Assembly: GCA_044368015.1 (NCBI GenBank)
Contig: JBIPLF010000004.1
Span: 246 to 64,245 of the forward strand
DNA: 64,000 bases
DNA from: Rickettsiales bacterium
GTDB taxonomy: Bacteria; Pseudomonadota; Alphaproteobacteria; Rickettsiales; RI-342
Direction of reading: 5' to 3'
Positions 1,563 to 62,577 of the stretch are shown here, piece after piece. Each line of letters opens with the position of its first letter. Position 1 is the stretch's first letter. The notes below the pieces were generated by a model. It was not told where the DNA came from. It ran no database searches and worked only from the letters and a program-made list of their open reading frames with translations. A program made the position numbers and the translations under genes.

Positions 1563-2905
1563 TGCAGCATCATGTAACACCCCCTCCCTATCCCTCCCCC
1601 GCCTTGCGGGAGAGGGGACCGGATGCAGCTTCGCGCCCTACAACCAACGTTGCTTGGATGAGAGGTCTTTCCTCCGGTCCCCTCTCCCGCTTTAGCGGGG
1701 GAGGTTGGAGGCAGTGCCTCCAAGGGAGGGGGTGGCTCCTTAGAAAGGGGACTCTGTTCTGTTGGATACTCACCCTCCCCCTCGCCTCCCTTGCCGCCGA
1801 CCCCAAAGACCAACTGGAAGCGGTGCAGGAAGCGATTGAGGACGCCAAAGAAGCCCGCGAAAAACACGCCGAGGAACGCGCCAAACAGCAGGAGATGCTG
1901 GAAGCGCTGCAACATACCGCCGTGGAAAGCGCGGCACAGCTCCGGTTGCTGGAAGCCGAAATGGCCCATACCGACAGCGCCTATGCGGAATCGGTACGCG
2001 AGACCGAACGCGCCGAGGAAGCGCTGGGGATGCAACGCAAAGAGCTGGAGGCGCTCGCCACCGCCATGCTGAAATTTGCGCGCACCCCGCCGGAAGTCGT
2101 GCTCGCCATGCCGGGAGAATCCGATACCGCCATCCGTGCGGCGGCCGTACTGGATACGCTGGTGGAGGAACTCCACACCCAAAGCGACGATCTGCACGAT
2201 AAACTCGCCGAACTCGCCGTCCGCAGGCAGGAGCAATCCCGCGTGAAGGAAAAGGTGGAAGAAGAGGTGGCGGAGTTGAAAAAACAACAGGAACGCCTCT
2301 CCGAAGATTTGAACAAACGTCAGGCCCTGTTCCGTTCTCTCAATGAGGAACTCGCCACTCAGGAGGCAAAGCTCGCCAAGCTCTCGGCGCAATCTACCTC
2401 GCTGATGGATCTGATCGCCAATCTGGAGAAGGAACGGGAAGCAGCCGAGAAAGCGGAAGCCGCACGTCCCTCCCCTCCCAAAGCCGGACGCCGCCTGCCA
2501 CTCACAAGCGAAGCCTTTCTGGATCGCAAGGGCAAATTGCTACTGCCGGTTTCCGGGAAAAAACTCACCGGTTTTGGCGCTACGGATAGCAGTGGCCGCA
2601 CCAGCAAAGGCGTGTCCTTCCGCGTGCCGCGTAAAGGACGGGTGGTCGCGCCGTTTCAAGGGGAGGTGGTGTATACCGGCCCGTTCATGAGTTATGGCAA
2701 GATCGTGATTTTACGCCACAGTGATGCATATCATACACTGATCGCCGGGCTTGACCGGATTGAAGTCGCATCCGGACAGTTTGTGTTGGAGGGCGAGCCG
2801 CTTGGTGCTATGGGTGGAGGAGAATCCGGCTCTGCCGTCGCCTATCTGGAACTTCGGAAACACAGTAAACCGATGGATCCTTCCGGGTGGTTTGCAGGGC
2901 TTTAA
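1562..2905 (+). CDS. M23 peptidase / murein hydrolase activator, EnvC-like (coiled coil + LytM domain)
   Basis: Long Glu/Ala/Lys-rich coiled-coil region, then a C-terminal LytM/M23 core (GKIVILRHSDAYHTLIAGL...GEPLG). Signal-like LFCWILTLPLASLAA. Start is ambiguous: ATG 1562 overlaps the gpmI stop (TAATG), and the alternative ATG 1658 lies inside the palindromic element. Confidence 0.8.
   Translation: MQHHVTPPPYPSPALRERGPDAASRPTTNVAWMRGLSSGPLSRFSGGGWRQCLQGRGWLLRKGTLFCWILTLPLASLAADPKDQLEAVQEAIEDAKEAREKHAEERAKQQEMLEALQHTAVESAAQLRLLEAEMAHTDSAYAESVRETERAEEALGMQRKELEALATAMLKFARTPPEVVLAMPGESDTAIRAAAVLDTLVEELHTQSDDLHDKLAELAVRRQEQSRVKEKVEEEVAELKKQQERLSEDLNKRQALFRSLNEELATQEAKLAKLSAQSTSLMDLIANLEKEREAAEKAEAARPSPPKAGRRLPLTSEAFLDRKGKLLLPVSGKKLTGFGATDSSGRTSKGVSFRVPRKGRVVAPFQGEVVYTGPFMSYGKIVILRHSDAYHTLIAGLDRIEVASGQFVLEGEPLGAMGGGESGSAVAYLELRKHSKPMDPSGWFAGL
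1578..1734. repeat. GC-rich palindromic element, family A (CCCTCCC...GGGAGGG arms with CTCTCCC-N-GGGAGAG hairpins)
   Basis: Left arm cccctccctatccctcccccgccttgcgggagaggggaccgga and right arm tccggtcccctctcccgctttagcgggggagg...gggagggggtg are inverted copies. Near-identical arms recur at 49865-50003. Confidence 0.85.
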
Positions 2906-4332: not shown

Positions 4333-4460
4333 CCCTCTCCCTTTGGGAGAGGGCAGGGTGAGGGAAAATCTTACCCCCTCCCGGTCTCGCTGTCGCGACT
4401 CGGCGGGCTACGCTCGTCTCACGCGGCTCGCCTCCCTCCCCCGCTTCGCGGGAGAGGGGA
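4333..4460. repeat. GC-rich palindromic element, family A composite
   Basis: ccctctccctttgggagagggcagggtgaggg hairpin plus the module ccccctcccggtctcgctgtcgcg...ctacgctc...cctccctcccccgcttcgcgggagagggga. The second module recurs at 17191-17254. Confidence 0.8.
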
Positions 4461-11653: not shown

Positions 11654-12238
11654 ATGACAGCACCATCTAACTTTATCCTCGCCTCCGCCTCTCCCATCCG
11701 GGCGCAGATGCTACGTGAGGCCGGATGCGTGTTTGACGTCATTGCCGCCCCCGATAGTGCAGAAGAAGCCACCAAATCCACGCTTGCAGATGCCCCTCCG
11801 CCAGAACGGGCGCGGTTACTGGCCATTGCCAAGGCGAAAGCCGTCAGCCTCACCCACCCGGAACGGCTGGTAGTGGGGGCGGATCAGGTCTGCGCGTTGG
11901 GGAAGAATATCCTCTCCAAACCGGGATCGCGGAAACGGGCGACCCAGCAATTACAGGCACTTTCCGGACAGACACACCACCAGCATAGCGCGGCCTGTAT
12001 CCTGCGCAATGGCGAGCTGCTGTGGTCGGAAGTCGCCACCGCCCACCTCACCATGCATCCCCTGTCGCTCACGGCAATCACCGACTATCTCGACCGCGAC
12101 CAGCCCTTTGGCTCCTGCGGCAGCTACCGGTTCGAGGGGACGGGCAAGGCGCTCTTCAGCCGTATCGAGGGAGATGCCTTCACCATTCAGGGACTTCCCT
12201 TGATTCCCCTGCTTTCTGCGCTACAAAGGGTGGCATGA
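11654..12238 (+). CDS. maf: Maf-like nucleoside triphosphate pyrophosphatase
   Basis: [15 protein letters not shown]-terminus and GSYRFEG / IQGLP C-terminal motifs. Stop overlaps the mutS start (ATGA). Confidence 0.85.
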
Positions 12239-14991
12239 AACCCGCCACCACCCTTCCTTCTGACACCACCCCCATGATGCGGCAATATCTGGGGATTCGT
12301 GAGCAGTATCCCGATTGCCTGCTCTTCTACCGCATGGGCGATTTCTACGAGTTGTTTTTTGAGGATGCCGTACGCGCCGCCGACGCGCTGGATATTGCGC
12401 TCACCAAACGCGGCCAGCATTTGGGAGAGGAAATCCCGATGTGCGGCGTGCCGGTGCATAGCCATGAAAACTACCTGCATCAACTGATCGCCAAGGGCTT
12501 CCGTGTGGCCATTTGCGAGCAGATGGAAGACCCACGCGAGGCCAAAAAACGCGGGGCGAAATCGGTGGTGGCCCGCGATGTGGTGCGGATCGTCACCCCC
12601 GGCACCCTCACCGAAGAAGGGTTGCTGGATGCCAAAGCCTCCAACTACCTGCTGGCGCTGGCGGAGATGCGCGGCCAGTTTGCCTGTGCCTGGCTGGAGC
12701 TTTCCACCGGAGCCTTCCGCGCCCGACTGGTAGAGGAAGCTCAGATTCTGGAACTGCTGGCACGCCTCCGCCCGGCGGAGATTTTGCTATCGGAATCGCA
12801 TATCGGCAAGACTCCCTCCACCGCTTGCGGGGGAGGGTTGGGGAGGGGGTGTCAGGAACATCCTGTCTCTACAAACACCCCCCACCTAACCTCCCCCCGC
12901 AAGCAGGGGGAGGAACTTTCGGGCTTCGCCCTTATATTGGAAGAATGGAAAGAAAAACTCCAATTCCACTCACCCGCCTTTTTCCATCCCGTGCAGGGTG
13001 GCGAGCGTCTAAAACGCCTGTTTGGGACGGCGACGCTCGACGCATTCGGCAGTTTTGAGCAACCGGAAATCGCGGCACTCGGCGCGCTGGTGCAGTATGT
13101 GGAACTCACCCAGAAAGGCGCCCTCCCCCAGCTGCTCCCCCCCGTGCGTGAGGTGGTCGGTTCCACCATGGCGATTGACGCCGCGACCCGCAAAAGCCTG
13201 GAACTCACCCACACCCAGCAAGGTACGCGCAAGGGAAGCCTGCTCGACGCAATCGACCGCAGCGTGACATCCGCCGGGGCGCGGCGGTTGCAGGACTGGC
13301 TTTCCGCCCCGTTGACGCTGCTTGCCCCCATTCAGGCACGGCAGGAGGCGGTGGCCTATCTGCTGGAAACGCCGGAACTCCGCACCCGCCTGCGCGAGAT
13401 TCTGCGTCGCAGTCCGGATCTCGAACGCGCCCTCGCACGGGTGGGGCTGAACCGCGCCAGCCCGCGGGATTTGGTCAGTATCCGCGATAGCCTAGAACGG
13501 GCGGGCGGGCTTGAAGCTCTCCTCGCCTCGCCGCGTTTGCCAGAGCATAGCCGGTTATTGGCGGAAACCGTGACGCATCTTTCCGGCCATGCGCCGCTCG
13601 TCACCACCCTGCACCGCGCCCTGAAACCAGAGGTGGGGCCGTTCGCCCGCGAGGGGCATTTTATCGCGGAAGGGTATCACCCGGAACTGGATCGGCTGCG
13701 GAGTTTGCGCGATGATAGCCGTCAGCTCATCGCCCGGTTGCAAGCGCGGTATGTGGGCGAGACGCAAATTCCCTCACTGAAAATCCGGCATAACAACATC
13801 GTTGGCTATTATATTGAGATCACCGCCACGCATCAGAAAAAGGTGCCTGAGAGTTTCATCCACCGCCAAACGCTGGCGAGCGCCATGCGCTTCACCACCC
13901 CCGAACTGGTGGAGCTGGAACGGCAGATTCAGGATGCAGGCGAAAAGGCGCTGGCCGTGGAGCTGGAGATTTTCGAGGCCCTGCTGGGTACGATCCGCGA
14001 GGCCTTCGCTCCCATCCGGAAGGCGGCAGAAGCCATGGCACGGCTGGATGCCTGTGCGAGCCTCGCCGAACTGGCGCAGGAGCAGCGCTACGTCAAGCCA
14101 CACCTCACCGACGATGCGCGGTTTTGCATCACGCGGGGGCGCCACCCGGTGGTAGAGCAGGTGCTTGCGGGTGATGCTTTCATCGGCAACGATACCCGGC
14201 TTTCCGAGGAAAGCCATGTATGGCTGCTCACCGGCCCCAATATGGCGGGTAAAAGCACCTTTTTGCGGCAAAACGCGCTGATCGCCATTCTGGCGCAAAT
14301 GGGGAGTTTCGTCCCCGCCGACCATGCGGAAATGGGCCTCGTGGATCGCGTCTTCAGCCGGGTAGGGGCCAGCGACGATCTCGCGCGCGGGCGTTCCACT
14401 TTCATGGTCGAGATGGTGGAAACGGCGATGATTTTACATCAGGCGACCGACCGCTCCCTGGTGATTCTGGACGAAATCGGCCGGGGAACCGCCACCTATG
14501 ACGGGCTGGCGATCGCCTGGGCGACGCTCGAACATCTGCATCAGGTCAACCGGTGCCGCACCCTGTTTGCCACCCATTACCACGAACTAACGGCACTCAC
14601 CGAGCGGTTGCCGAGGCTCGCCTGCCACACCATGCGCGTGCGCGAATGGCAGGGCGGGATTGTCTTTCTGCATGAGGTCATCCCCGGTGCGGCGGATCGC
14701 TCTTACGGGTTGCATGTGGCACGTCTTGCCGGGCTTCCGGCACCGGTGCTGGCACGGGCCGAAACCATTCTGCAACAGTTGGAATCCAAAGAAGCCGGAA
14801 GTGCCGCAGCCCGTGTGGCGGAGTCCCTTCCCCTGTTTGCCTTCGCGGAAACGCAAAGCGCCCCGCCGCCTGCGCCTCCTTCGGCACTGGAACAACAACT
14901 CGCGGCGCTGGATGTGGATAACCTCACCCCCCGCGAAGCACTGGAGTGGTTGTACCGTCTTAAAGGGCCACTCTCCACACAGCCTGCGTAA
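12235..14991 (+). CDS. mutS: DNA mismatch repair protein MutS
   Basis: [34 protein letters not shown] mismatch-binding N-terminus, Walker [24 protein letters not shown] 12235 chosen; the ORF-track start 12022 overlaps maf. Confidence 0.95.
12813..12912. repeat. GC-rich palindromic element, family A, in frame inside mutS
   Basis: tccaccgcttgcgggggagggttggggagggggtg and caccccccacctaacctccccccgcaagcagggggagg are inverted arms. Translated as ...[33 protein letters not shown]... Confidence 0.8.
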
Positions 14992-16922: not shown

Positions 16923-17030
16923 GGAGTTAGCTATCTTCAGGTTAGGGACAAATACGTGGCTCGTAAGTGTTTATCCCATCTGTGTAGGCGTTGATAATAT
17001 AGTATTTTCAAATGATTGCCAGGCTCTCTT

Positions 17031-17254
17031 CACCCCTCCCTTGATGGGAGGGGTCGGAATCGTTGACGATTCCGGGGGAGGGTGTCATCCTGAGCGTAGC
17101 GAAGGATCCCTCAGTTTACATAAACCTATCCGTGCTTCGTAAACGGAGAGATCCTTCGGGGATGCATCCTCTCATGATGACCACCCCCTCCCGGCCTCGC
17201 TGGCGGTTCGCTACGCTCACGCCGCTCGCCGACCTCCCCCATCAAGGGGGAGGT
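17031..17254. repeat. nested composite: family A arms enclosing a family B element (17084-17180)
   Basis: cacccctcccttgatgggaggggtcggaatcgttgacgattccgggggagggtg, then gtcatcctgagcgtagcgaaggatccctc...gagagatccttcgggg...catgatgac, then ccaccccctcccggcctcgctgg...cccccatcaagggggaggtg. Confidence 0.85.
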
Positions 17255-17349
17255 GAAATACGCGAGGCCGTCTGGAAAACAATCGAAAATGCTATAGGAT
17301 CATAATGCAAGTGTTGTGGATATCTGCGAAGGTACCTCCCTCGCACTAC

Positions 17350-19366: not shown

Positions 19367-19451
19367 GGCACGTCCTTGATCAATGCTATGTTTTCGGCTT
19401 GCTTGACGCTTGCATCATCCCTTTTCCCTGCCGCTTGCGGCAACGGTTCTA

Positions 19452-19545
19452 CCCCCTCTCCCTCTGGGAGAGGGTCGGGGTGAGGGGGGACTTAACTCGT
19501 CCCTCACCCGGCGCTGCGCGCCACCCTCTCCCGGAGGGAGAGGGA
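19452..19545. repeat. GC-rich palindromic element, family A
   Basis: ccccctctccctctgggagagggtcggggtgaggggg ... ccctcacccggcgctgcgcgccaccctctcccggagggagaggg. Confidence 0.8.
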
Positions 19546-23984: not shown

Positions 23985-26900
23985 TCATCCCCCCCACTCC
24001 TTCACCCGCGCCAGATGCATAAAATCCGAATGCGGCGGGCGGCGGTCGGGTGTGGGGCAGGAGAGATAGGGCGTTTCCGGATCGTCAAACGCAGCAATGA
24101 GTGCCTGCACGCCCGCTTCCGCCTCCCGAATCAGCGTTGGGTGTTTCTCGGGTTTAGGGGTTAGGTATTCCACCACATCCTCACGTCCGTGCAACTTCCA
24201 GTAGGAGGTGGTGAAACTCAGGGGAAGCTCTGGTAAGTCTGCAAACCCGGCTTTGGCGGCAATCAACGCTTCCAGTGTCAATTGGCAGGCAACGCCCTGA
24301 TCAATCTTCTTCTGACTGGGGAGCAGACCAGTTTTGTAATCAATGCAGGCGAGTTCCCCCGTGGAAGGCGCATATTCCAGCCGGTCGGCCTTGGCGCTTA
24401 GCGTAAACGGCCCGGCGGACGCTGCCCATTGCCAGGTGCCGGTGCATTCGCTGAAAAGCTGCAACCCCGTGGCACGCCGCGCTGCGTCTTCCTCCACAAA
24501 CCAGTGGAGAATCTGCATCAGCCGTGGCCACCAGAAATGCCGAATCGCCGGACGTTCCAGCAGTTTCCCCAGTTGGGACGCGGCCTCCTGCTCCATCCAT
24601 GCGATCCGCGCATCGGGAGAAAGTGAAGGAAACGCCAGCGCATAACCCTCCAGAATCGCATGGAGTATCTGCCCGAATTGCAGATGGCTGGGGTCGAGAT
24701 CGAGTTCCTCCAACGCCTTGAGCTTGAGGATTTTCGACGCATAGAGGCTATAGGGATCGCGCAGTAACAGCTCAATTCGCGTCGCCGAAAGTGACCGTGG
24801 CCGCAGGCCTACCGGAGGGCAAGCCGCCACCGGTGCAAGCGGTGTCACGGTTTTCGGTTGGTCCAGCTGCGCCACCCATGCGGGGAAATGCGCGGTACTC
24901 CCCCTCTCCCTGTGGGAGAGGGAGGGGTGAGGGAAATCTGAATCCTGAACTCCGCACTCTACACTCTGCAATCCCCCCACCACCTCCACTCGCTGCCACC
25001 AACGCGAGGGGATGGCCGGGCTTCCCCCCTGTTTGCGGGCGCGGGTGAGGATTACCTCCGGCAGTGCCATCAGGGTAGCAACATCATAGGCCGAACGACC
25101 AATTTCCTCCGTCGTGTCCGGCAACCCCAGCTTCACGCGCATCGGACGGCTGAGCCAGGGGTCGGCCTCTGGCAATGCGGGCCAGGTGCCCTCGTTCAAC
25201 CCGGCCAGAATCACCCGATCGGCCCGTTGCAACCGCGCCTCAATGGGGCTTAGAATCCGCAGCCGTGGATGCCGATGGTAGGGCGCGTGGTAGCTCTCCT
25301 TGCTCATTAATTGCTGCAACACGGCGGCATAATGGCGACCATCCAGCGTAAAATGCTCCTCGGCGGCATCCCACAACGCCTCGCACCACCGGCTGCTGGC
25401 ATGTCCGGTATCCTCGGCCCACAGCCGCTCGGCACCGGGTGCGACATCGCTACTGGCGAGCGCCTCAGCGGCGCGCAGATGCGTCTCCCACAGATCACGC
25501 AGCCTCACCGACCGGGCGGCAAGCAGGCGCGTCAATGGCTCCAGCGCCGCATGGATACGGTCGAACCAGACGCGCATTTCCGGTTCGTCGTGCTGAGCGG
25601 AGCGAAGCATCTCGCCACTTGCTCCAAAGGTTTGTCGCGATGAGAGATCCTTCCGCTTCGCTCCGCTTTGCGTCAGGATGACATCCCGCCACCCCTCCAA
25701 CGTATGAGGCCGCAACCCCCGCAAGGTGTGGATTTCCAGCCTCCGCGCCATGCGACGACAGGCGGCAGGCGTAACCCCCACCACCGCCATCGGGTGTTTG
25801 AGAAGCGCCAGAAACGGCACCGGCGAGAGCGGATCACCCGCCAACTCCACCACCAAACGCAGAAACACCATGGAGGGCAGCGCGGCCACCGGCACCCCAG
25901 CGGAATCGTCCAACTCCACCCCATAGCGTGCCAGCGAGGCAATCACCCGACGCGCCAGCGCCCGATCCGGCGTGACGAGCATCGCCGTCTTGCCGGGGGT
26001 TTCCAACGTTTCGCGCAGCATCATGGCAATGCCAAGCGCTTCGTCCTGGGGGGTGGGGAAGACAGGGTTCAGGATTCGGGATTCAGGGGTCAGAAGTTTT
26101 TCCGTCCCTCTTTCTGAATCCTGAATCCTGAGCCCTGAACCCTGATGCCACGCCTCACTCACCGCTGCTGGCCGCATCACCTCGGCGATCCAGCGGGTGC
26201 GGGGTGATAGCGGCGAGGCACCCGGAAACAACGTCACCGCCTCACGCGGGAGGTTGAGCAGCTCCAGCAGGTTTTTCAGCGCATATTGCGGGTGACCGGG
26301 GGCAATGGCTTTCCAGTAATCGGCATCGCTTTCCTGATCGAGCGGCGGCAGCACCAGCATCCCTTCCGGCATCCGGGCGATGCAACGCAGCAGCCGCGCC
26401 GTGGCGGGCTGACTGCCGGTAGACCCCGCCGCCACCAGCGGAAAGGCGGGCGGATGCGCCTCCCAATGCGCCACCAGCGCCCGCAATTGCCGGTTGCGGC
26501 GATCCACCGGGTCCAGAAAACCAGATTCCTGCACGATCTTCGGCCAATGTTCGGTGAGGATGCTTAAAAACCCCACCACCTCCTGCCAGTGATGCGACAG
26601 ATGCTCCGGTGCCAGATCGCGCAGCTTACTGGTGTCGCAATCATAGCGTTGCCAATCATCCAGCAGACTCGCCAGACTATCGGCCAGCAGCAGCGCGTGG
26701 TCGTGACGGCGAATCGCCTGCGGCAGCGCGCCCTGCCAGCGTTCAATCAGTTGCGCGAGGAGGAATTGCCGGGTCAGCAGCGGAATCGCCGGAGGCAGCG
26801 GCGCAATCTCTTCCAGAATCGCGGCGAGGCTCCCTTCCTGCTCGATATCCCCCAGCGCCGCCATGCGCGGCAGCAGCAGGGGCCGCCCCTCGCTCACCCG

Positions 26901-27056
26901 CACAAAGGCTTCGCGCAACGCCGGAACCGCTCGCTGCGTGGGCAGCAGCACCAGCGTCCGGGCCAGCAACTCGGCCTCGTCCTGCGTGCGATGGATCAAC
27001 CCACGCGCCAGCGTTTCCAGAAATGCCACGCCTGCGGGGATGGTCGTGCAATGCAT
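23985..27056 (-). CDS. addB: double-strand break repair protein AddB (alphaproteobacterial type)
   Basis: 1023 aa. N-terminus TIPAGVAFLETLARGLI and C-terminal PD-(D/E)xK nuclease region ADRLEY...CIDYKTG are typical of alpha AddB. Three palindromic elements are read through in frame. No addA downstream. Confidence 0.85.
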   Translation of the reverse strand: MHCTTIPAGVAFLETLARGLIHRTQDEAELLARTLVLLPTQRAVPALREAFVRVSEGRPLLLPRMAALGDIEQEGSLAAILEEIAPLPPAIPLLTRQFLLAQLIERWQGALPQAIRRHDHALLLADSLASLLDDWQRYDCDTSKLRDLAPEHLSHHWQEVVGFLSILTEHWPKIVQESGFLDPVDRRNRQLRALVAHWEAHPPAFPLVAAGSTGSQPATARLLRCIARMPEGMLVLPPLDQESDADYWKAIAPGHPQYALKNLLELLNLPREAVTLFPGASPLSPRTRWIAEVMRPAAVSEAWHQGSGLRIQDSERGTEKLLTPESRILNPVFPTPQDEALGIAMMLRETLETPGKTAMLVTPDRALARRVIASLARYGVELDDSAGVPVAALPSMVFLRLVVELAGDPLSPVPFLALLKHPMAVVGVTPAACRRMARRLEIHTLRGLRPHTLEGWRDVILTQSGAKRKDLSSRQTFGASGEMLRSAQHDEPEMRVWFDRIHAALEPLTRLLAARSVRLRDLWETHLRAAEALASSDVAPGAERLWAEDTGHASSRWCEALWDAAEEHFTLDGRHYAAVLQQLMSKESYHAPYHRHPRLRILSPIEARLQRADRVILAGLNEGTWPALPEADPWLSRPMRVKLGLPDTTEEIGRSAYDVATLMALPEVILTRARKQGGSPAIPSRWWQRVEVVGGLQSVECGVQDSDFPHPSLSHRERGSTAHFPAWVAQLDQPKTVTPLAPVAACPPVGLRPRSLSATRIELLLRDPYSLYASKILKLKALEELDLDPSHLQFGQILHAILEGYALAFPSLSPDARIAWMEQEAASQLGKLLERPAIRHFWWPRLMQILHWFVEEDAARRATGLQLFSECTGTWQWAASAGPFTLSAKADRLEYAPSTGELACIDYKTGLLPSQKKIDQGVACQLTLEALIAAKAGFADLPELPLSFTTSYWKLHGREDVVEYLTPKPEKHPTLIREAEAGVQALIAAFDDPETPYLSCPTPDRRPPHSDFMHLARVKEWGG
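23988..24060. repeat. direct repeat copy 2 (functional addB 3' end)
   Basis: Starts immediately after the addB stop codon complement (23985-23987) and encodes the last ~24 codons of addB. Confidence 0.9.
24900..24950. repeat. family A hairpin plus family D-like tail, in frame in addB
   Basis: ccccctctccctgtgggagagggaggggtgaggg followed by aaatctgaatcctgaac. Translated on the minus strand as ...VQDSDFPHPSLSHRERGS... Confidence 0.75.
25586..25682. repeat. family B palindromic element, in frame in addB
   Basis: cgtcgtgctgagcggagcgaagcatctc...gagagatccttccgcttcgctccgctttgcgtcaggatgac. Same architecture as 17084-17180 and 40197-40301. Translated as ...SGAKRKDLSSRQTFGASGEMLRSAQHDE... Confidence 0.8.
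26063..26144. repeat. family D palindromic element (gattcagg / cctgaatc repeats), in frame in addB
   Basis: cagggttcaggattcgggattcaggggtcag ... ctgaatcctgaatcctgagccctgaaccctg. Translated as ...GSGLRIQDSERGTEKLLTPESRILNP... Confidence 0.8.
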
Positions 27057-27106
27057 GAGGAAAGCAGCCAGAAATCAGGATTTAGGAAGCAGCAGAACGC
27101 TACAAG

Positions 27107-40196: not shown

Positions 40197-40301
40197 GCAT
40201 GCTGAGTGAAGCGAAGTATCTCTCCGCTTGGAATGATGTGACAGATGCCTTGTTCTGTTGAGAGATGCTTCCCCTTCGCTCCACTCAGCGTCAGCATGAC
40301 G
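40197..40301. repeat. family B palindromic element
   Basis: gcatgctgagtgaagcgaagtatctctc...gagagatgcttccccttcgctccactcagcgtcagcatgacg. Confidence 0.8.
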
Positions 40302-47455: not shown

Positions 47456-49864
47456 ATGACCGAATCCGCCCTGCAACGTTACCCGCTGCTGCCGTTACGC
47501 GATATTGTCGTGTTTCCGAGCATGATCGTGCCCCTGTTCGTGGGACGCGAGAAGTCCGTCAAGGCGCTGGAGGATGTGGTGCGCACGGATAAGAAAATCC
47601 TGCTCGTCGCGCAACGCAACGCCAATCAGGATGATCCCGGTCCCAAGGATTTATACCGCGTGGGGACGCTCGCCAGCATCCTGCAACTGCTGAAACTCCC
47701 CGATGGCACGGTGAAAGTGCTGGTGGAAGGGCTGGAGCGCAACAAGATTGTCGAATATCTGGAAGCCCCCGGCTACTACGCCGTCCACGCAGAAAAACTG
47801 CATGATGCATCGGGCAGCGCAGAAGATGTGCAGGCGCTTACCCGCTCGCTGATGGCGCGGTTTGAGGAATATATCAAGCTCAACAAGAAGATTCCGCCGG
47901 AAGTGCTGGGCGCACTGAATCAGGTAGAAGATGCCGGAAGGCTGGCCGATACCATCGTCTCACACATGGCGCTCAAAATTCCGGACAAACAGCAGGTGCT
48001 GGAGCTTTCGGACATCGCCAAGCGGTTGGAGAAAGTCTACGGCTTTCTGGAGAGCGAAATCAGCGTGCTCAACACGGAGAAACGCATCCGTTCCCGCGTC
48101 AAGCGCCAGATGGAGAAAACCCAGCGCGAATATTATCTGAATGAGCAGATGAAAGCGATTCAGAAAGAGCTGGGCGAAACCGAGGAAGGCAAAGACGAAT
48201 ACAGCGAGCTGGAAGACAAGATCAAAAAAACCCGCATGACCAAAGAGGCGAAGGACAAAGCCAAAGCGGAGATGAAAAAACTCCGCACCATGAGCGCGAT
48301 GTCGGCGGAAGCCTCGGTGATTCGTAACTATCTGGAATGGCTGGTGAGCATTCCGTGGAAGAAATTCTCCCGCGTCAAGAAAGACCTGCGCGAAGCCCAA
48401 AGCGTGCTGGATCACGACCATTACGGGCTGGAAAAGGTCAAGGAACGGATTCTGGAGCATCTGGCCGTGCATCAACGCACCGGCGCGGTGCAGGGGTCGC
48501 TGCTATGCCTTGTCGGCCCTCCAGGTGTAGGAAAAACCTCGCTGGCACGCTCTATCGCACGGGCCACGGGCCGCAAATATGTGCGGATGTCTCTTGGTGG
48601 TGTGCGGGACGAAGCCGAGATTCGCGGCCATCGCCGCACCTATATCGGCTCCATGCCGGGGAAAATCATCCATAGCATGAAGAAGGCCGGAGCCTCTAAC
48701 CCGCTGTTACTGCTGGATGAAATCGACAAAATGGGGCATGATTTCCGGGGCGACCCGGCCGCCGCCCTGCTGGAGGTGCTGGACCCTGAACAAAATAAGG
48801 AATTCAGCGATCACTATCTGGAAGTGGATTACGACCTCTCCAATGTGATGTTCATCTGCACGGCGAACTCGCTGAAAATGCCGCGTCCGCTGCTCGACCG
48901 GATGGAGATCATCCGCCTTTCCGGTTACACGGAACGCGAGAAGGTGGAAATCGCCAAGCGCCACCTCATCGCCAAGCAACGCAAAGAACATGGGGTGAAG
49001 GAAGGCGAACTGACCATCACCGAAGACGCCCTGCGCGACACCATCCGCTACTATACCCGCGAGGCGGGAGTGCGGAATCTGGAACGGGAACTTGCCAAAC
49101 TCTGCCGTAAAACGGTGCGGGAAATCCTGTTAGGCGGTACGCAGCATGTGACGATCACGGCGGAGAATCTCAGTGAATATCTGGGCGTGCGGAAGCATAA
49201 TTTCGGCGTGGCAGAGCTGGAAGATCTGGTGGGCGTCACCACCGGCCTTGCCTATACCGAGGTCGGCGGCGACCTGCTACAAATTGAAGCGGTAACCGTT
49301 CCCGGCAAGGGCAAGCTCACCATCACCGGACAGTTGGGCGAAGTGATGCAGGAATCCGCGCAGGCGGCAATGAGCTTTGTGCGCTCGCGCTGTCTGGATT
49401 TTGGCATTATTCCACCGGAATATCAGAATGTGGATATCCACGTCCATGTTCCGGAAGGCGCGGTGCCGAAGGACGGCCCCTCGGCGGGTGTCGCCATGAC
49501 CACCACGATTGTTTCCGTGCTCACCGGCATTCCGGTGCGGAAAAACGTGGCCATGACGGGCGAGATCAACCTGCGCGGCGCGGTGACCGCCATCGGCGGC
49601 TTAAAGGAGAAGCTCCTCGCGGCGCTGCGTGGCGGCATTGATACCGTGCTGATCCCTCAGGAGAATGTGAAAGACTTGGAGGACATCCCCGATGAGGTCA
49701 AAAACGGCCTGACCATCATCCCTGTGCTCACGGCAGAGGAAGCGCTGAAAATCGCCCTCTCCCGTCCCTTTGAGCGCCGGGAATGGACCCCTCCCCTGCC
49801 CGCGATCCCGCTCGCCGCCATCGCGGAGGAAGAGGCGGATGACGAGGTGCGGCGGAAGCATTAG
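47456..49864 (+). CDS. lon: ATP-dependent protease Lon
   Basis: LON N-domain, Walker A GPPGVGKTS, catalytic Ser motif PKDGPSAGVAMTT. Confidence 0.95.
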   Translation: MTESALQRYPLLPLRDIVVFPSMIVPLFVGREKSVKALEDVVRTDKKILLVAQRNANQDDPGPKDLYRVGTLASILQLLKLPDGTVKVLVEGLERNKIVEYLEAPGYYAVHAEKLHDASGSAEDVQALTRSLMARFEEYIKLNKKIPPEVLGALNQVEDAGRLADTIVSHMALKIPDKQQVLELSDIAKRLEKVYGFLESEISVLNTEKRIRSRVKRQMEKTQREYYLNEQMKAIQKELGETEEGKDEYSELEDKIKKTRMTKEAKDKAKAEMKKLRTMSAMSAEASVIRNYLEWLVSIPWKKFSRVKKDLREAQSVLDHDHYGLEKVKERILEHLAVHQRTGAVQGSLLCLVGPPGVGKTSLARSIARATGRKYVRMSLGGVRDEAEIRGHRRTYIGSMPGKIIHSMKKAGASNPLLLLDEIDKMGHDFRGDPAAALLEVLDPEQNKEFSDHYLEVDYDLSNVMFICTANSLKMPRPLLDRMEIIRLSGYTEREKVEIAKRHLIAKQRKEHGVKEGELTITEDALRDTIRYYTREAGVRNLERELAKLCRKTVREILLGGTQHVTITAENLSEYLGVRKHNFGVAELEDLVGVTTGLAYTEVGGDLLQIEAVTVPGKGKLTITGQLGEVMQESAQAAMSFVRSRCLDFGIIPPEYQNVDIHVHVPEGAVPKDGPSAGVAMTTTIVSVLTGIPVRKNVAMTGEINLRGAVTAIGGLKEKLLAALRGGIDTVLIPQENVKDLEDIPDEVKNGLTIIPVLTAEEALKIALSRPFERREWTPPLPAIPLAAIAEEEADDEVRRKH

Positions 49865-50003
49865 CCCCCTCCCTGTCCCTCCCCCGCGTTGCGGGAGAGG
49901 GGACCGGAGGGAAAGCCTCTCCTGATACACATACGCTGATCGTAGAGCGCGATGGTGCATCAGGTCCCCTCTCCCGCAACGCGGGGGAGGGACAGGGAGG
50001 GGG
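49865..50003. repeat. family A element with perfect 41-bp inverted arms
   Basis: ccccctccctgtccctcccccgcgttgcgggagaggggacc (49865-49905) is the exact reverse complement of 49963-50003. It starts 1 nt after the lon stop. Confidence 0.9.
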
Positions 50004-50047
50004 TAAATTTCACTTGCTTCAGTCCATGAGACTCGCAGAATAACGCC

Positions 50048-61703: not shown

Positions 61704-62480
61704 TTATCCTCGAATGATCGTGTAGGTACCTTTGCCCTGAAGCGCATTGGCGAACGCGCCGGGCGTATGAATGGAATGCACAATGATCGGCAATTTATTA
61801 TCGCGTGCGAGCGCAATCGCCGCGCCGTCCATCACTTTGAGATTTTTGGAGAGCACCTCCGTATAGGAAAGCTCCTTATACAGCGTGGCGGTGGGATCTT
61901 TTTTGGGATCGGCGGTATACACCCCATCCACCTGCGTGCCCTTCAACAGCGCATCGCAGCGGGTCTCAACCGCCCGCAGCGCGGCCGCCGTGTCGGTGGT
62001 GAAGAAGGGATTACCCGTACCCGCCGCGCAAATCACAATCCGCCCATGCTCCAGATGCCGGATCGCCCGACGCCGGATGTACGGCTCGCACACTTCGGTC
62101 ATGGTGATGGCGGAAAGCACGCGGGTTTCCACACCCATCTGCTCCAGCATGTTCTGAATGGCGAGCGCGTTGAGCACCGTCGCCAGCATGCCCATATAGT
62201 CGGCGCTGGCACGTTCCATCCCTTGCGCGGCCCCGGAAATACCCCGGAAGATATTACCGCCGCCCACCACCAGACAGAGCTGCACGCCCAGATCATGCAC
62301 GGCGCGGATTTCCTCGCAAATACGCCGCAAGGTTTCCAGATCCTGCCCATAGCCCTGATCGCCCATCAGCGATTCGCCGGAAATTTTAAGAAGCACCCGG
62401 CGATAGGGAACGGCATTCGTAGCGGAAGTCGCGTCTTTCATGGCTTGCACGGCACCCATTGTACCCTCCTGATATTTCAT
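61704..62480 (-). CDS. pyrH: UMP kinase
   Basis: [13 protein letters not shown] and [10 protein letters not shown] motifs. The start could be an internal Met. Confidence 0.9.
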
Positions 62481-62481
62481 T

Positions 62482-62565
62482 CCCCCCCTCCCTTGATGGG
62501 AAGGGGATAGGGGTATTTTGAAGGTATCACCCCCTCCCTAACCCTCCCCCATTCAGGGGGAGGGA
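62482..62565. repeat. GC-rich palindromic element, family A
   Basis: ccccccctcccttgatgggaaggggataggggt ... caccccctccctaaccctcccccattcagggggaggg. It fills the tig-pyrH spacer and abuts the pyrH start codon. Confidence 0.8.
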
Positions 62566-62577
62566 ACAAGGCATCGC

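Follow-up and report, generated by a model that had tools for sequence, protein, structure and literature searches.

How does a palindromic stretch of DNA come to be translated as part of mutS, and what does it do to the protein? The question is posed by the segment at 12813-12912 of the window, by which we mean the whole 64,000-nt (64-kb) stretch analyzed here, from a Rickettsiales bacterium. An earlier note had described this segment as two inverted arms lying in frame and stop-free within mutS, and the sequence, the open reading frame (ORF), and a gap in 120 homologues all agree with that description. We consider it probable that a BoxC/TM-type unit, present as a palindromic doublet, was inserted here in frame and is carried as a tolerated passenger, as the Rickettsia palindromic elements (RPEs) are. 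The coordinates of the features discussed are collected in Table 1.

Table 1. The mutS insert, its parts, and related repeat copies in the 64-kb window
Feature	Position	Strand	Description and basis
mutS coding sequence, host of the insert	12235-14991	+	918 aa plus stop; ORF
In-frame insert in mutS	12808-12915	+	108 nt = 36 codons, residues 192-227; alignment gap and pLDDT
Left arm, triplex-type unit	12814-12849	+	CCCTCCACC-(GCTTGC)-GGGGGAGGG-(TTG)-GGGAGGGGG; geometric scan
Central spacer	12853-12874		22 nt, TCAGGAACATCCTGTCTCTACA; small hairpin of its own
Right arm, triplex-type unit	12878-12913	-	CCTCCCCCT-(GCTTGC)-GGGGGGAGG-(TTA)-GGTGGGGGG; geometric scan
Intergenic copy, mutS subfamily	1580-1616	-	One end of a ~140-nt composite palindrome, 1570-1716
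Intergenic composite palindrome, mutS subfamily	49865-50003		Units 49865-49901 (-) and 49967-50003 (+), "tails-out"
Intergenic doublet, "tails-in" like the mutS copy	62480-62567		Degenerate unit 62482-62513 (+), consensus unit 62530-62564 (-)
Intergenic unit, sister subfamily	19454-19486	+	Exact match to the published TMECO pattern
Sister-subfamily unit inside addB	24902-24933	+	In frame, encodes FPHPSLSHRER; geometric scan

The host gene is a recognizable mutS throughout. Its product is identical to protein P0001, annotated as MutS, and contains Pfam MutS_I, II, III, IV, and V, with MutS_II found in two stretches. A phmmer comparison with E. coli MutS structures gives an E-value of 1e-185, and Foldseek places the whole model on E. 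coli MutS (1e3m/3zlj) with a target-normalized TM-score of 0.8. The mismatch-binding GDFYE motif, Walker A, Walker B, STFMVE, the HTH, and LPLF are all intact. When the protein is aligned with its 120 best homologues using MAFFT, all 120 have a 36-residue gap at the insert, and the length of the site is otherwise constant, differing by 1 residue in P0057 alone. In these 120 homologues the segment is neither conserved nor matched by a variable linker, the two findings that the earlier note had said would speak against its reading. In the AlphaFold2 model, pLDDT falls below 50 exactly at the inserted residues (27-45), while the 10-residue blocks beside them stand at about 81-96. The homologue gap and this low-confidence segment together set the bounds in Table 1, which are slightly wider than 12813-12912; the palindrome itself spans 12808-12919. 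The alignment and the structural model that the earlier note had proposed as checks fix the insertion point within domain II, the connector domain, between β-strand 182-186 and helix 230-241, and yield a low-confidence loop in an otherwise well-modeled MutS. Two of the six reading frames of the insert are free of stops, and mutS uses one of those two. The resulting loop is rich in Gly, Pro, Ser, and Thr, and the model suggests that the 36 added residues are probably a floppy surface loop.

We infer an insertion at the level of DNA from distant homologues and from nucleotide similarity to repeats. The event itself is unseen because there is no empty-site allele and no homologue above 59% identity. 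A full-length protein search found no MutS homologue more than 59% identical; a search for a closer allele with a 197-residue segment returned only fragments 37-39% identical and also missed P0001 itself. Exact 24-mer and 26-mer sequences from the mutS flanks, used to look for an empty site, had no matches in metagenome contigs.

At the level of DNA the insert is a palindrome. Its inverted arms (12813-12852 and 12875-12914) are each 40 nt long, 78% complementary, and 22 nt apart. As RNA, the insert is predicted to fold with -77 kcal/mol (z -7.1 against shuffles); as DNA, the plus strand folds with -39.1 kcal/mol (z -7.5) and the minus strand with -35.1 kcal/mol (z -6.2). Each arm contains a unit that is itself composite: a C-rich arm comes first, followed by its G-rich complement and then by a mirror-repeat G block. 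A geometric scan, which looked for a pyrimidine block, a complementary purine block, a mirror purine block, and short loops, found one duplex mismatch and no triad mismatches in the left arm and neither kind in the right arm. Between the two arms the A/T position has moved by one in all three blocks, so that the hairpin-plus-mirror geometry is kept. When each arm is folded as DNA with ViennaRNA, the hairpin part alone is predicted, at -10 kcal/mol. The left arm also holds a canonical G-quadruplex (G4) motif, GGGGGAGGGTTGGGGAGGGGG, on the mutS sense strand; as read from its letters, the mutS unit stretch fits both a triplex design and a G-quadruplex motif. Rfam, searched with gathering and E-value thresholds, returned generic long-hairpin microRNA models for the element, all far below the cut-offs, and membership in a described RNA family was ruled out on this basis. 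We note separately that the central spacer, when flanks were compared by eye, is unlike the spacers of two "tails-in" doublets found elsewhere (L031, L067).

The same unit is dispersed through the window, which contains 14 hairpin units. Nine units found by the geometric scan are triplex-compatible, both mutS arms among them, against none in 20 shuffles. The mutS subfamily follows the pattern CCCTCYCCCGC-N2-3-GCGGGGGAGGG-N3-GGGAGGGGG, and the mutS units can be aligned with those at 1578, 49865/49967, and 62530. A 22-mer from the left arm has 3 matches in the window within 3 mismatches, where 0.00 are expected; those at 1578 and 62528 have 1-2 mismatches. The repeat family drawn up in the earlier note is upheld with one correction: by the 22-mer and the unit alignment, the copies at 1578, 49865, and 62482 belong with the mutS element, whereas those at 4333 and 19452 fall in a sister subfamily with the pattern GGGAGAGGG-N-GGGTGAGGG, which is of the E. 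coli BoxC/TMECO type. The composite palindrome at 49865-50003 is near-perfect, with 49-nt arms that are 94% complementary and a DNA fold of -72.5 kcal/mol (z -13.5); its ~51-nt spacer and the spacer in the 1570-1716 copy are homologous by alignment. The earlier note had counted mutS as a second DNA-repair gene with an element-encoded peptide, and addB (23985-27056, minus strand) is indeed another such gene in the window. Three repeat-derived in-frame segments of addB have no counterpart in 90% or more of 70 homologues, and this applies to AddB residues 708-718, encoded by the unit at 24902-24933.

Beyond the window, a scan of a genome collection located the unit at 120 or more loci. Among the matches listed, the hosts are Alpha-, Beta-, Gamma-, and Deltaproteobacteria, Acidobacteriota, Chloroflexi, Gemmatimonadota, and Deinococcus. 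Although the search pattern held the G-part only, the C-arm is also present in 130 of the 142 foreign copies among the matches listed, and at least 16 inverted pairs occur among the foreign copies listed. Among 5426 complete E. coli genomes, 4908 contain sites that share ~90% identity, across 39 nt, with the region of the sister unit (19448-19492), at a median of 9 places per genome; the mutS subfamily gave one 21-nt partial match in a single E. coli genome (19% of the query, E = 3), a poor result to which the BLAST low-complexity filter may contribute. In unrelated bacteria the unit also sits in frame in PolA (L019, L091), HsdM (L079), the 2-oxoacid dehydrogenase E2 acyltransferase (L100), and ThiC (L040). 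These hosts come from 138 stop-to-stop ORF candidates, a set far too permissive in GC-rich genomes, which was then filtered by a flank requirement, by GC3-GC2 on both sides, and by Pfam. Since the unit lies in frame in PolA, HsdM, E2, and ThiC, it has no specificity for repair genes, and the idea of repair genes as special targets finds no support; the verified foreign hosts E2 and ThiC count against it. The in-frame hosts are more in keeping with long multidomain enzymes that tolerate the unit than with an element that targets repair.

In the mechanism that we favor, a doublet of the G/C-rich dispersed unit would have entered the mutS coding sequence. The most plausible route would be hairpin- or single-strand-mediated copying, or template switching at a stalled replication fork. 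For the mutS element, the searches revealed neither a transposase nor a target-site duplication nor a REP tag; inspected by eye, the copy has only imperfect TCGGC/TCGGGC flanks, and the 1570-1716 and 49860-50008 copies have no consistent target-site duplication. The mutS copy would have survived by being 3n long (108 nt), stop-free in the frame used, and placed in a connector-domain loop. Translation would then add a 36-residue loop without disturbing the modeled fold. The insert is most likely without useful function, and MutS would still work with it in place.

The consequence that the earlier note had in mind is a different one, namely, that an insert perturbing MutS could raise mutation or repeat-recombination rates and so favor spread of the elements. 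Spelled out, the insert would cripple or weaken MutS, for instance through connector movement or MutL loading, and produce a constitutive (hyper)mutator or hyper-recombiner. We regard this as improbable. The location lends it some weight: in the sliding-clamp state of E. coli MutS, MutL interface 2 is made by the connector domain, at Q211/Q212 (PMC4521584). The equivalent residues here are E256/R257, and the position follows the insert by ~25 residues in sequence; going by this proximity, a 36-residue loop could interfere. The window is, moreover, unusually repeat-rich, with some repeats inside genes, and the TM repeat class is tied to genomic instability in E. coli (PMC4666352). Against this, the 918-codon ORF is intact with all its motifs conserved, which is unexpected for a gene released from selection, and the insert is predicted to be a disordered loop between well-modeled elements. 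The in-frame copies in the essential or housekeeping proteins PolA, E2, and ThiC further suggest that such loops are generally tolerated.

It is also conceivable, if decidedly improbable, that the element has been co-opted as a regulatory or contingency device, for example with palindromic, G-quadruplex-prone, or triplex-prone DNA or mRNA slowing mutS translation or transcription or with reversible precise excision switching MutS. The very stable predicted mRNA hairpin (-77 kcal/mol), the canonical G4 motif on the sense strand, and the partial deletions to which palindromic TM pairs are prone in E. coli (PMC4666352) speak for it. However, the mutS arms are more degenerate than the intergenic copies (78% vs 94% complementary in the intergenic palindrome), as expected of decay and not of maintenance. 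PIT elements, according to work cited in PMC4666352, have neither promoter nor terminator activity in E. coli. No promoter-like site was found in 12500-13200, and the one terminator-like site near the insert (12766-12780, upstream of it) is at shuffle level, with 1 found and 1.0 expected.

An assembly artefact, that is, a repeat-induced chimera or a collapsed read inside mutS, is very unlikely. With so many copies of the family in the genome, an assembler could be misled, but mutS is colinear on both flanks, the added stretch amounts to exactly 36 codons and has no in-frame stop, and no other copy in the window is identical to the arms, so the insert is not a pasted duplicate. In addition, every base of the 2902-nt contig L001, a Logan assembly of SRR27335586, agrees with the mutS region of the JGI/NCBI contig, insert included; the two assemblies come from different pipelines and possibly share one sample or read set. 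That the segment is an ordinary lineage-specific loop expansion of MutS, resembling the repeats by chance or compositional bias, is barely credible: an old loop in so isolated a lineage (nearest MutS 59%) would be compatible with the protein data alone, but the 22-mer similarity to intergenic copies, the fit of both arms to a three-block unit absent from shuffles, a 40-nt inverted repeat (z about -7) that has no reason to be in a protein loop, and a site nearly constant in length in 120 homologues (1 residue in one) all argue against it.

A tolerated, in-frame repeat doublet in mutS has several consequences. By its sequence, the mutS unit is a member of a recognized and pan-bacterial class, BoxC/PIT/TMECO, which the earlier note had not identified and which is represented here by a coding copy unlike those of E. 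coli. BoxC/TM-type repeats, described as strictly intergenic in E. coli, can sit in frame inside essential genes, and the turning of selfish repeat DNA into protein-coding sequence in mutS is real, though it has a precedent in the RPEs. The in-frame BoxC/TM units in mutS, addB, polA, hsdM, E2, and thiC show that "coding palindromes" of the kind seen in Rickettsia also arise from another, very widespread repeat class. An insert of this sort may be taken for a feature peculiar to the protein of one lineage, and it can break domain models, as in the split of Pfam MutS_II. A functional effect on mismatch repair, if true, would be interesting. On a bolder view, triplex- and G4-prone repeats would be a general, unrecognized source of loops, and the mutS copy would be an excisable contingency locus that varies MutS level or activity; we think this quite improbable, but a contingency locus in mutS, if true, would link repeat proliferation to mutation-rate control.

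Among known systems, bacterial MITEs with intragenic in-frame copies include ERIC, Correia/NEMIS, BOX, and others (PMC10969869). Like the mutS element, they are small and non-autonomous, have terminal inverted repeats, and are sometimes fused in frame to host ORFs; in the mutS element terminal inverted repeats are present because the element is a palindrome. Unlike in MITEs, no target-site duplication is recognized at the mutS copy. We know of no cognate insertion sequence for it. Work on REP and REPIN-RAYT systems was reportedly done by Nunvar in 2010 and by Bertels and Rainey in 2011. REP, BIME, and REPIN elements, which are RAYT-mobilized (Di Nocera et al. 2013, PMC3733652), likewise consist of short imperfect palindromes, stand alone or are paired in inverted doublets able to form one long hairpin, and are high in copy number and mostly extragenic. 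The mutS unit differs in having a third, mirror-repeat block, which REPs lack. Of the REP tags, neither GTAG nor CGTC nor GACG occurs in 12808-12919, where a single CTAC lies in the spacer, and a crude regular-expression search (HUH...Y..NP) of the 64 kb revealed no RAYT-like ORF.

The closest match in construction is the repeat class known as BoxC, PIT (potential intrastrand triplex), or TMECO, described in E. coli and other proteobacteria (Holder et al. 2015, NAR, PMC4666352) following, as that paper relates, work by Bachellier et al. in the 1990s and by Hoyne/Maher in 2000. The likeness extends to the three blocks (a 9-nt C-rich arm, a short loop, and a complementary 9-nt G-rich arm, then a 3-nt loop and another G-rich block that would allow a purine-motif triplex), to the many dispersed copies and inverted ("palindromic") pairs, and to the lack of an associated transposase. 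Both mutS arms have the geometry of a class II (purine-motif) intrastrand triplex. They are nonetheless a variant with a GC clamp, having GGGGGAGGG/GGGAGGGGG in place of GGGNGAGGG/GGGNGAGGG; the G blocks are GGGGGAGGG/GGGAGGGGG in the left arm and GGGGGGAGG/GGTGGGGGG in the right. The literal TMECO pattern, CCCTCNCCC-N3-6-GGGNGAGGG-N3-GGGNGAGGG (PMC4666352), is matched in the window, by regular expression, at 19454-19486 alone and by neither mutS arm. TMECO elements are reported to be always intergenic in E. coli MG1655 (PMC4666352), whereas the mutS doublet and the addB unit lie in frame inside coding sequence, and the doublet is translated.

In its coding habit the element is closest to the RPEs, which are inserted in frame in many genes (Ogata et al. 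2000 Science; Ogata et al. 2002 Genome Res; reviewed in PMC10969869). Both are multicopy palindromic repeats of ~100-150 bp that lie in frame in unrelated housekeeping genes, with several genes hit in one genome, although for the present genome the count is of two genes with inserts within 64 kb. In RPEs the host protein accommodates the extra peptide in both fold and function, and for mutS the structural model predicts as much for the fold. RPEs are AT-rich and the mutS arms G/C-rich; a sequence relationship between them is not expected. The present host, moreover, is not Rickettsia but a deep-branching, metagenome-only alphaproteobacterium of ~58% G+C, and the RPEs are a genus-specific family, whereas the triplex-type unit that makes up the mutS element is pan-bacterial.

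The reading of the earlier note, a palindromic repeat lying in frame in mutS, is borne out: the sequence quoted at 12813-12912 agrees with that of the window, and 36 residues of the product are absent from all 120 homologues with which it was aligned. They follow the conserved '...RLxPxELL(S/P)E' strand and precede the next helix, at a site where the 120 are otherwise constant in length except that one of them (P0057) differs by 1 residue. The best limits of the insert are 12808-12915, or 108 nt. Its two inverted arms (12813-12852 and 12875-12914) are 40 nt each and 78% complementary, with 22 nt between them, and the palindrome region folds at -77 kcal/mol as RNA (z -7.1 against dinucleotide shuffles) and, as DNA, at -39.1 kcal/mol on the + strand (z -7.5) and -35.1 kcal/mol on the - strand (z -6.2) against the same type of shuffles. 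The source contig, 111.7 kb long, is metagenomic (JGI 3300059473; also in NCBI), and an independent Logan assembly of SRR27335586 is identical across 2902 nt, insert included. After the protein itself, the nearest relative among the 120 homologues listed has 59% identity; the best matches are from Azospirillaceae and other Rhodospirillales, and judged by sequence this MutS appears to be without a close relative. We note that a search with a 197-residue MutS segment returned only three distant fragments and missed the full-length self protein (P0001), so that short-segment negatives in that index call for caution.

The rest of the protein is a recognizable MutS. E. coli MutS structures match it with E about 1e-185 (phmmer), and domains I-V are all detected (Pfam). 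The alignment and the modeling that the earlier note proposed place the insert in the connector domain, with no homologue carrying it, as a low-confidence segment in a well-modeled MutS. In the AlphaFold2 model (50 homologues, mean pLDDT 77.8), residues 192-227 are the sole long internal segment of the N-terminal half with pLDDT <50, and they are exactly the 36 inserted residues; the flanks are a strand (182-186) and helices (230-241), with 10-residue blocks at pLDDT about 81-96. Superposition of the model on E. coli MutS gives a TM-score of 0.8 normalized to target, and the insertion site corresponds roughly to E. coli residues 184-190. It is possible, though unlikely, that the insert affects MutS and the mutation rate. 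In the sliding-clamp state, part of MutL interface 2 comes from the connector domain (Q211/Q212; PMC4521584), and the equivalents of these residues lie about 25 residues past the insert in sequence distance. The mismatch-binding GDFYE, Walker A and B, STFMVE, C-terminal HTH, and LPLF motifs are all intact.

The window contains 14 C-rich/G-rich hairpin units which, aligned in one orientation, follow the plan TCCCCTCTCCCGC-NNN-GCGGGGGAGGG-NNN-GGGAGGGGGTG, with a hairpin first and then a G block mirroring the G arm (GGGGGAGGG / GGGAGGGGG). The proposed family link of the mutS arms to intergenic copies holds, as the left-arm 22-mer has further matches, each with 1-2 mismatches, at 1578 and 62528 (0.00 matches expected). 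A generalized geometric scan for a pyrimidine block, a complementary purine block, and a mirror purine block found nine units in the window versus none in 20 shuffles, and both mutS arms are among those that satisfy it. In the right arm each of the three blocks (CCTCCCCCT / GGGGGGAGG / GGTGGGGGG) has its A/T position displaced by one, which preserves the geometry. The mutS arms are a GC-clamped variant of the unit. Rfam has no family for the mutS element, and it carries no REP tag (12808-12919). A crude regular-expression search of the 64 kb gave no RAYT-like ORF, and no target-site duplication was convincing. At 1570-1716 and 49860-50008, composite palindromes of about 140-150 nt carry triplex-type units as terminal inverted repeats, and between these repeats lies a central spacer of about 50 nt that is homologous in the two but oppositely oriented; because they share these repeats and the spacer, they make up a MITE-like family, separate from the doublet in mutS.

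The unit has the design of a class II, purine-motif intrastrand triplex motif, named TMECO in Holder et al. 2015 (PMC4666352), with BoxC and PIT as older names. TMECOs follow the pattern CCCTCNCCC-N3-6-GGGNGAGGG-N3-GGGNGAGGG, number 3610 in 262 proteobacterial genomes, also occur as palindromic pairs, are always intergenic in E. coli MG1655, lack a transposon link, and are associated with local genomic instability (PMC4666352). The window copy at 19454-19486 satisfies the literal pattern; neither mutS arm fits it. Of 5426 complete E. coli genomes, 4908 have sites with about 90% identity, across 39 nt, to the region around this intergenic alphaproteobacterial copy (19448-19492), at a median of nine places per genome; the E. 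coli site listed first lies between hrpB and mrcB and has no RefSeq annotation. The mutS variant gave one 21-nt partial match in E. coli, in a single genome (E = 3). Scanning one genome per species with the G part only (GCGGGGGAGGGNNNGGGAGGGGG) returned at least 120 loci, those listed being from Alpha-, Beta-, Gamma-, and Deltaproteobacteria, Acidobacteriota, Chloroflexi, Longimicrobium, Deinococcus, and even Pasteurellaceae; the variant is widespread outside E. coli. The C-arm, which the pattern left free, is present in 130 of 142 copies among the matches listed. Inverted pairs ≤200 nt apart are "tails-out" in 14 cases versus "tails-in" in two, again among the matches listed; the mutS doublet and 62480-62567 have the "tails-in" order, the rarer one among foreign pairs. 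Units with a C-arm occur in Deinococcota, Chloroflexi, Acidobacteriota, and Gemmatimonadota (foreign loci L002-L121, among the matches listed) and at two low-GC Pasteurellaceae loci (L029, L039). A C-arm T stands opposite G in 57 of the 130 copies listed, a wobble on the hairpin of the G-rich strand only.

The claim that mutS is a second repair gene with an element-encoded peptide is upheld by addB, whose product has three private in-frame segments relative to 70 homologues; they come from three different repeat families. Elsewhere, 5 of 145 foreign unit copies among the matches listed lie in frame in Pfam-confirmed genes, the two DNA polymerase I cases (L019, L091) being from unrelated MAGs. 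In-frame copies are rare (about 3%) yet recurrent, and their hosts are varied long enzymes. The earlier interpretation stands in part: a palindromic repeat does lie in frame in mutS, and a preference for repair genes finds no support, given hosts such as PolA, HsdM, E2, and ThiC.

Genes and in-frame segments carrying repeat units
Feature	Position or foreign locus	Strand	Remark
MutS ORF			2.97 kb; product from M at 12235 is 918 aa, full-length MutS
addB	23985-27056	-	first repair gene of the earlier note
AddB segment FPHPSLSHRER	24903-24935		BoxC-type unit
AddB segment LSSRQTFGASGEMLRSA	25596-25646		inside palindrome 25596-25667, second repeat family
AddB segment LTPESRILNP	26064-26093		inside heptamer palindrome 26063-26144
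DNA polymerase I	L019		unit in frame, in linker
DNA polymerase I	L091		unit doublet in frame, splits 3'-5' exonuclease domain
HsdM	L079		unit in frame
2-oxoacid dehydrogenase E2 catalytic domain	L100		unit in frame
ThiC	L040		unit in frame

Other repeats accompany these units. A CTGAATC-like heptamer family has 13 matches in the window versus 1.9 expected, clustered in and just upstream of addB (24938-24952, 26065-26149, 27071-27092), and its palindrome at 26063-26144 has 33-nt arms. A third family, CATCCTGAGCG.AGCGAAGGATC, has three copies versus 0 expected (17086-17108, 25589-25611, 40198-40220), one of them in frame in addB; we take it to resemble a palindromic repeat, very common across bacteria, from which '...LRSAQHD...' peptides arise. 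A nested palindrome of 229 nt (17029-17257), intergenic after typA/bipA, ends in CCCCTCCC-TTGAT-GGGAGGGG hairpins, and its inner palindromes include the CATCCTGAGCG... family.

What mutS carries is a 108-nt palindrome of repeat origin, in frame and free of stops, which falls in a loop of a MutS that is intact in other respects. We infer that it is a tolerated passenger, which would have been retained owing to its 3n length, an open frame in the one used (two of the six frames of the element are open), and its placement in a loop. The mutS arms are more decayed than those of one intergenic copy (78% vs 94% complementary). A regulatory or contingency role of the insert is possible but unlikely. 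Among known systems, the BoxC/PIT/TMECO class comes closest to the mutS unit, and the Rickettsia palindromic elements come closest to the behavior of the insert.
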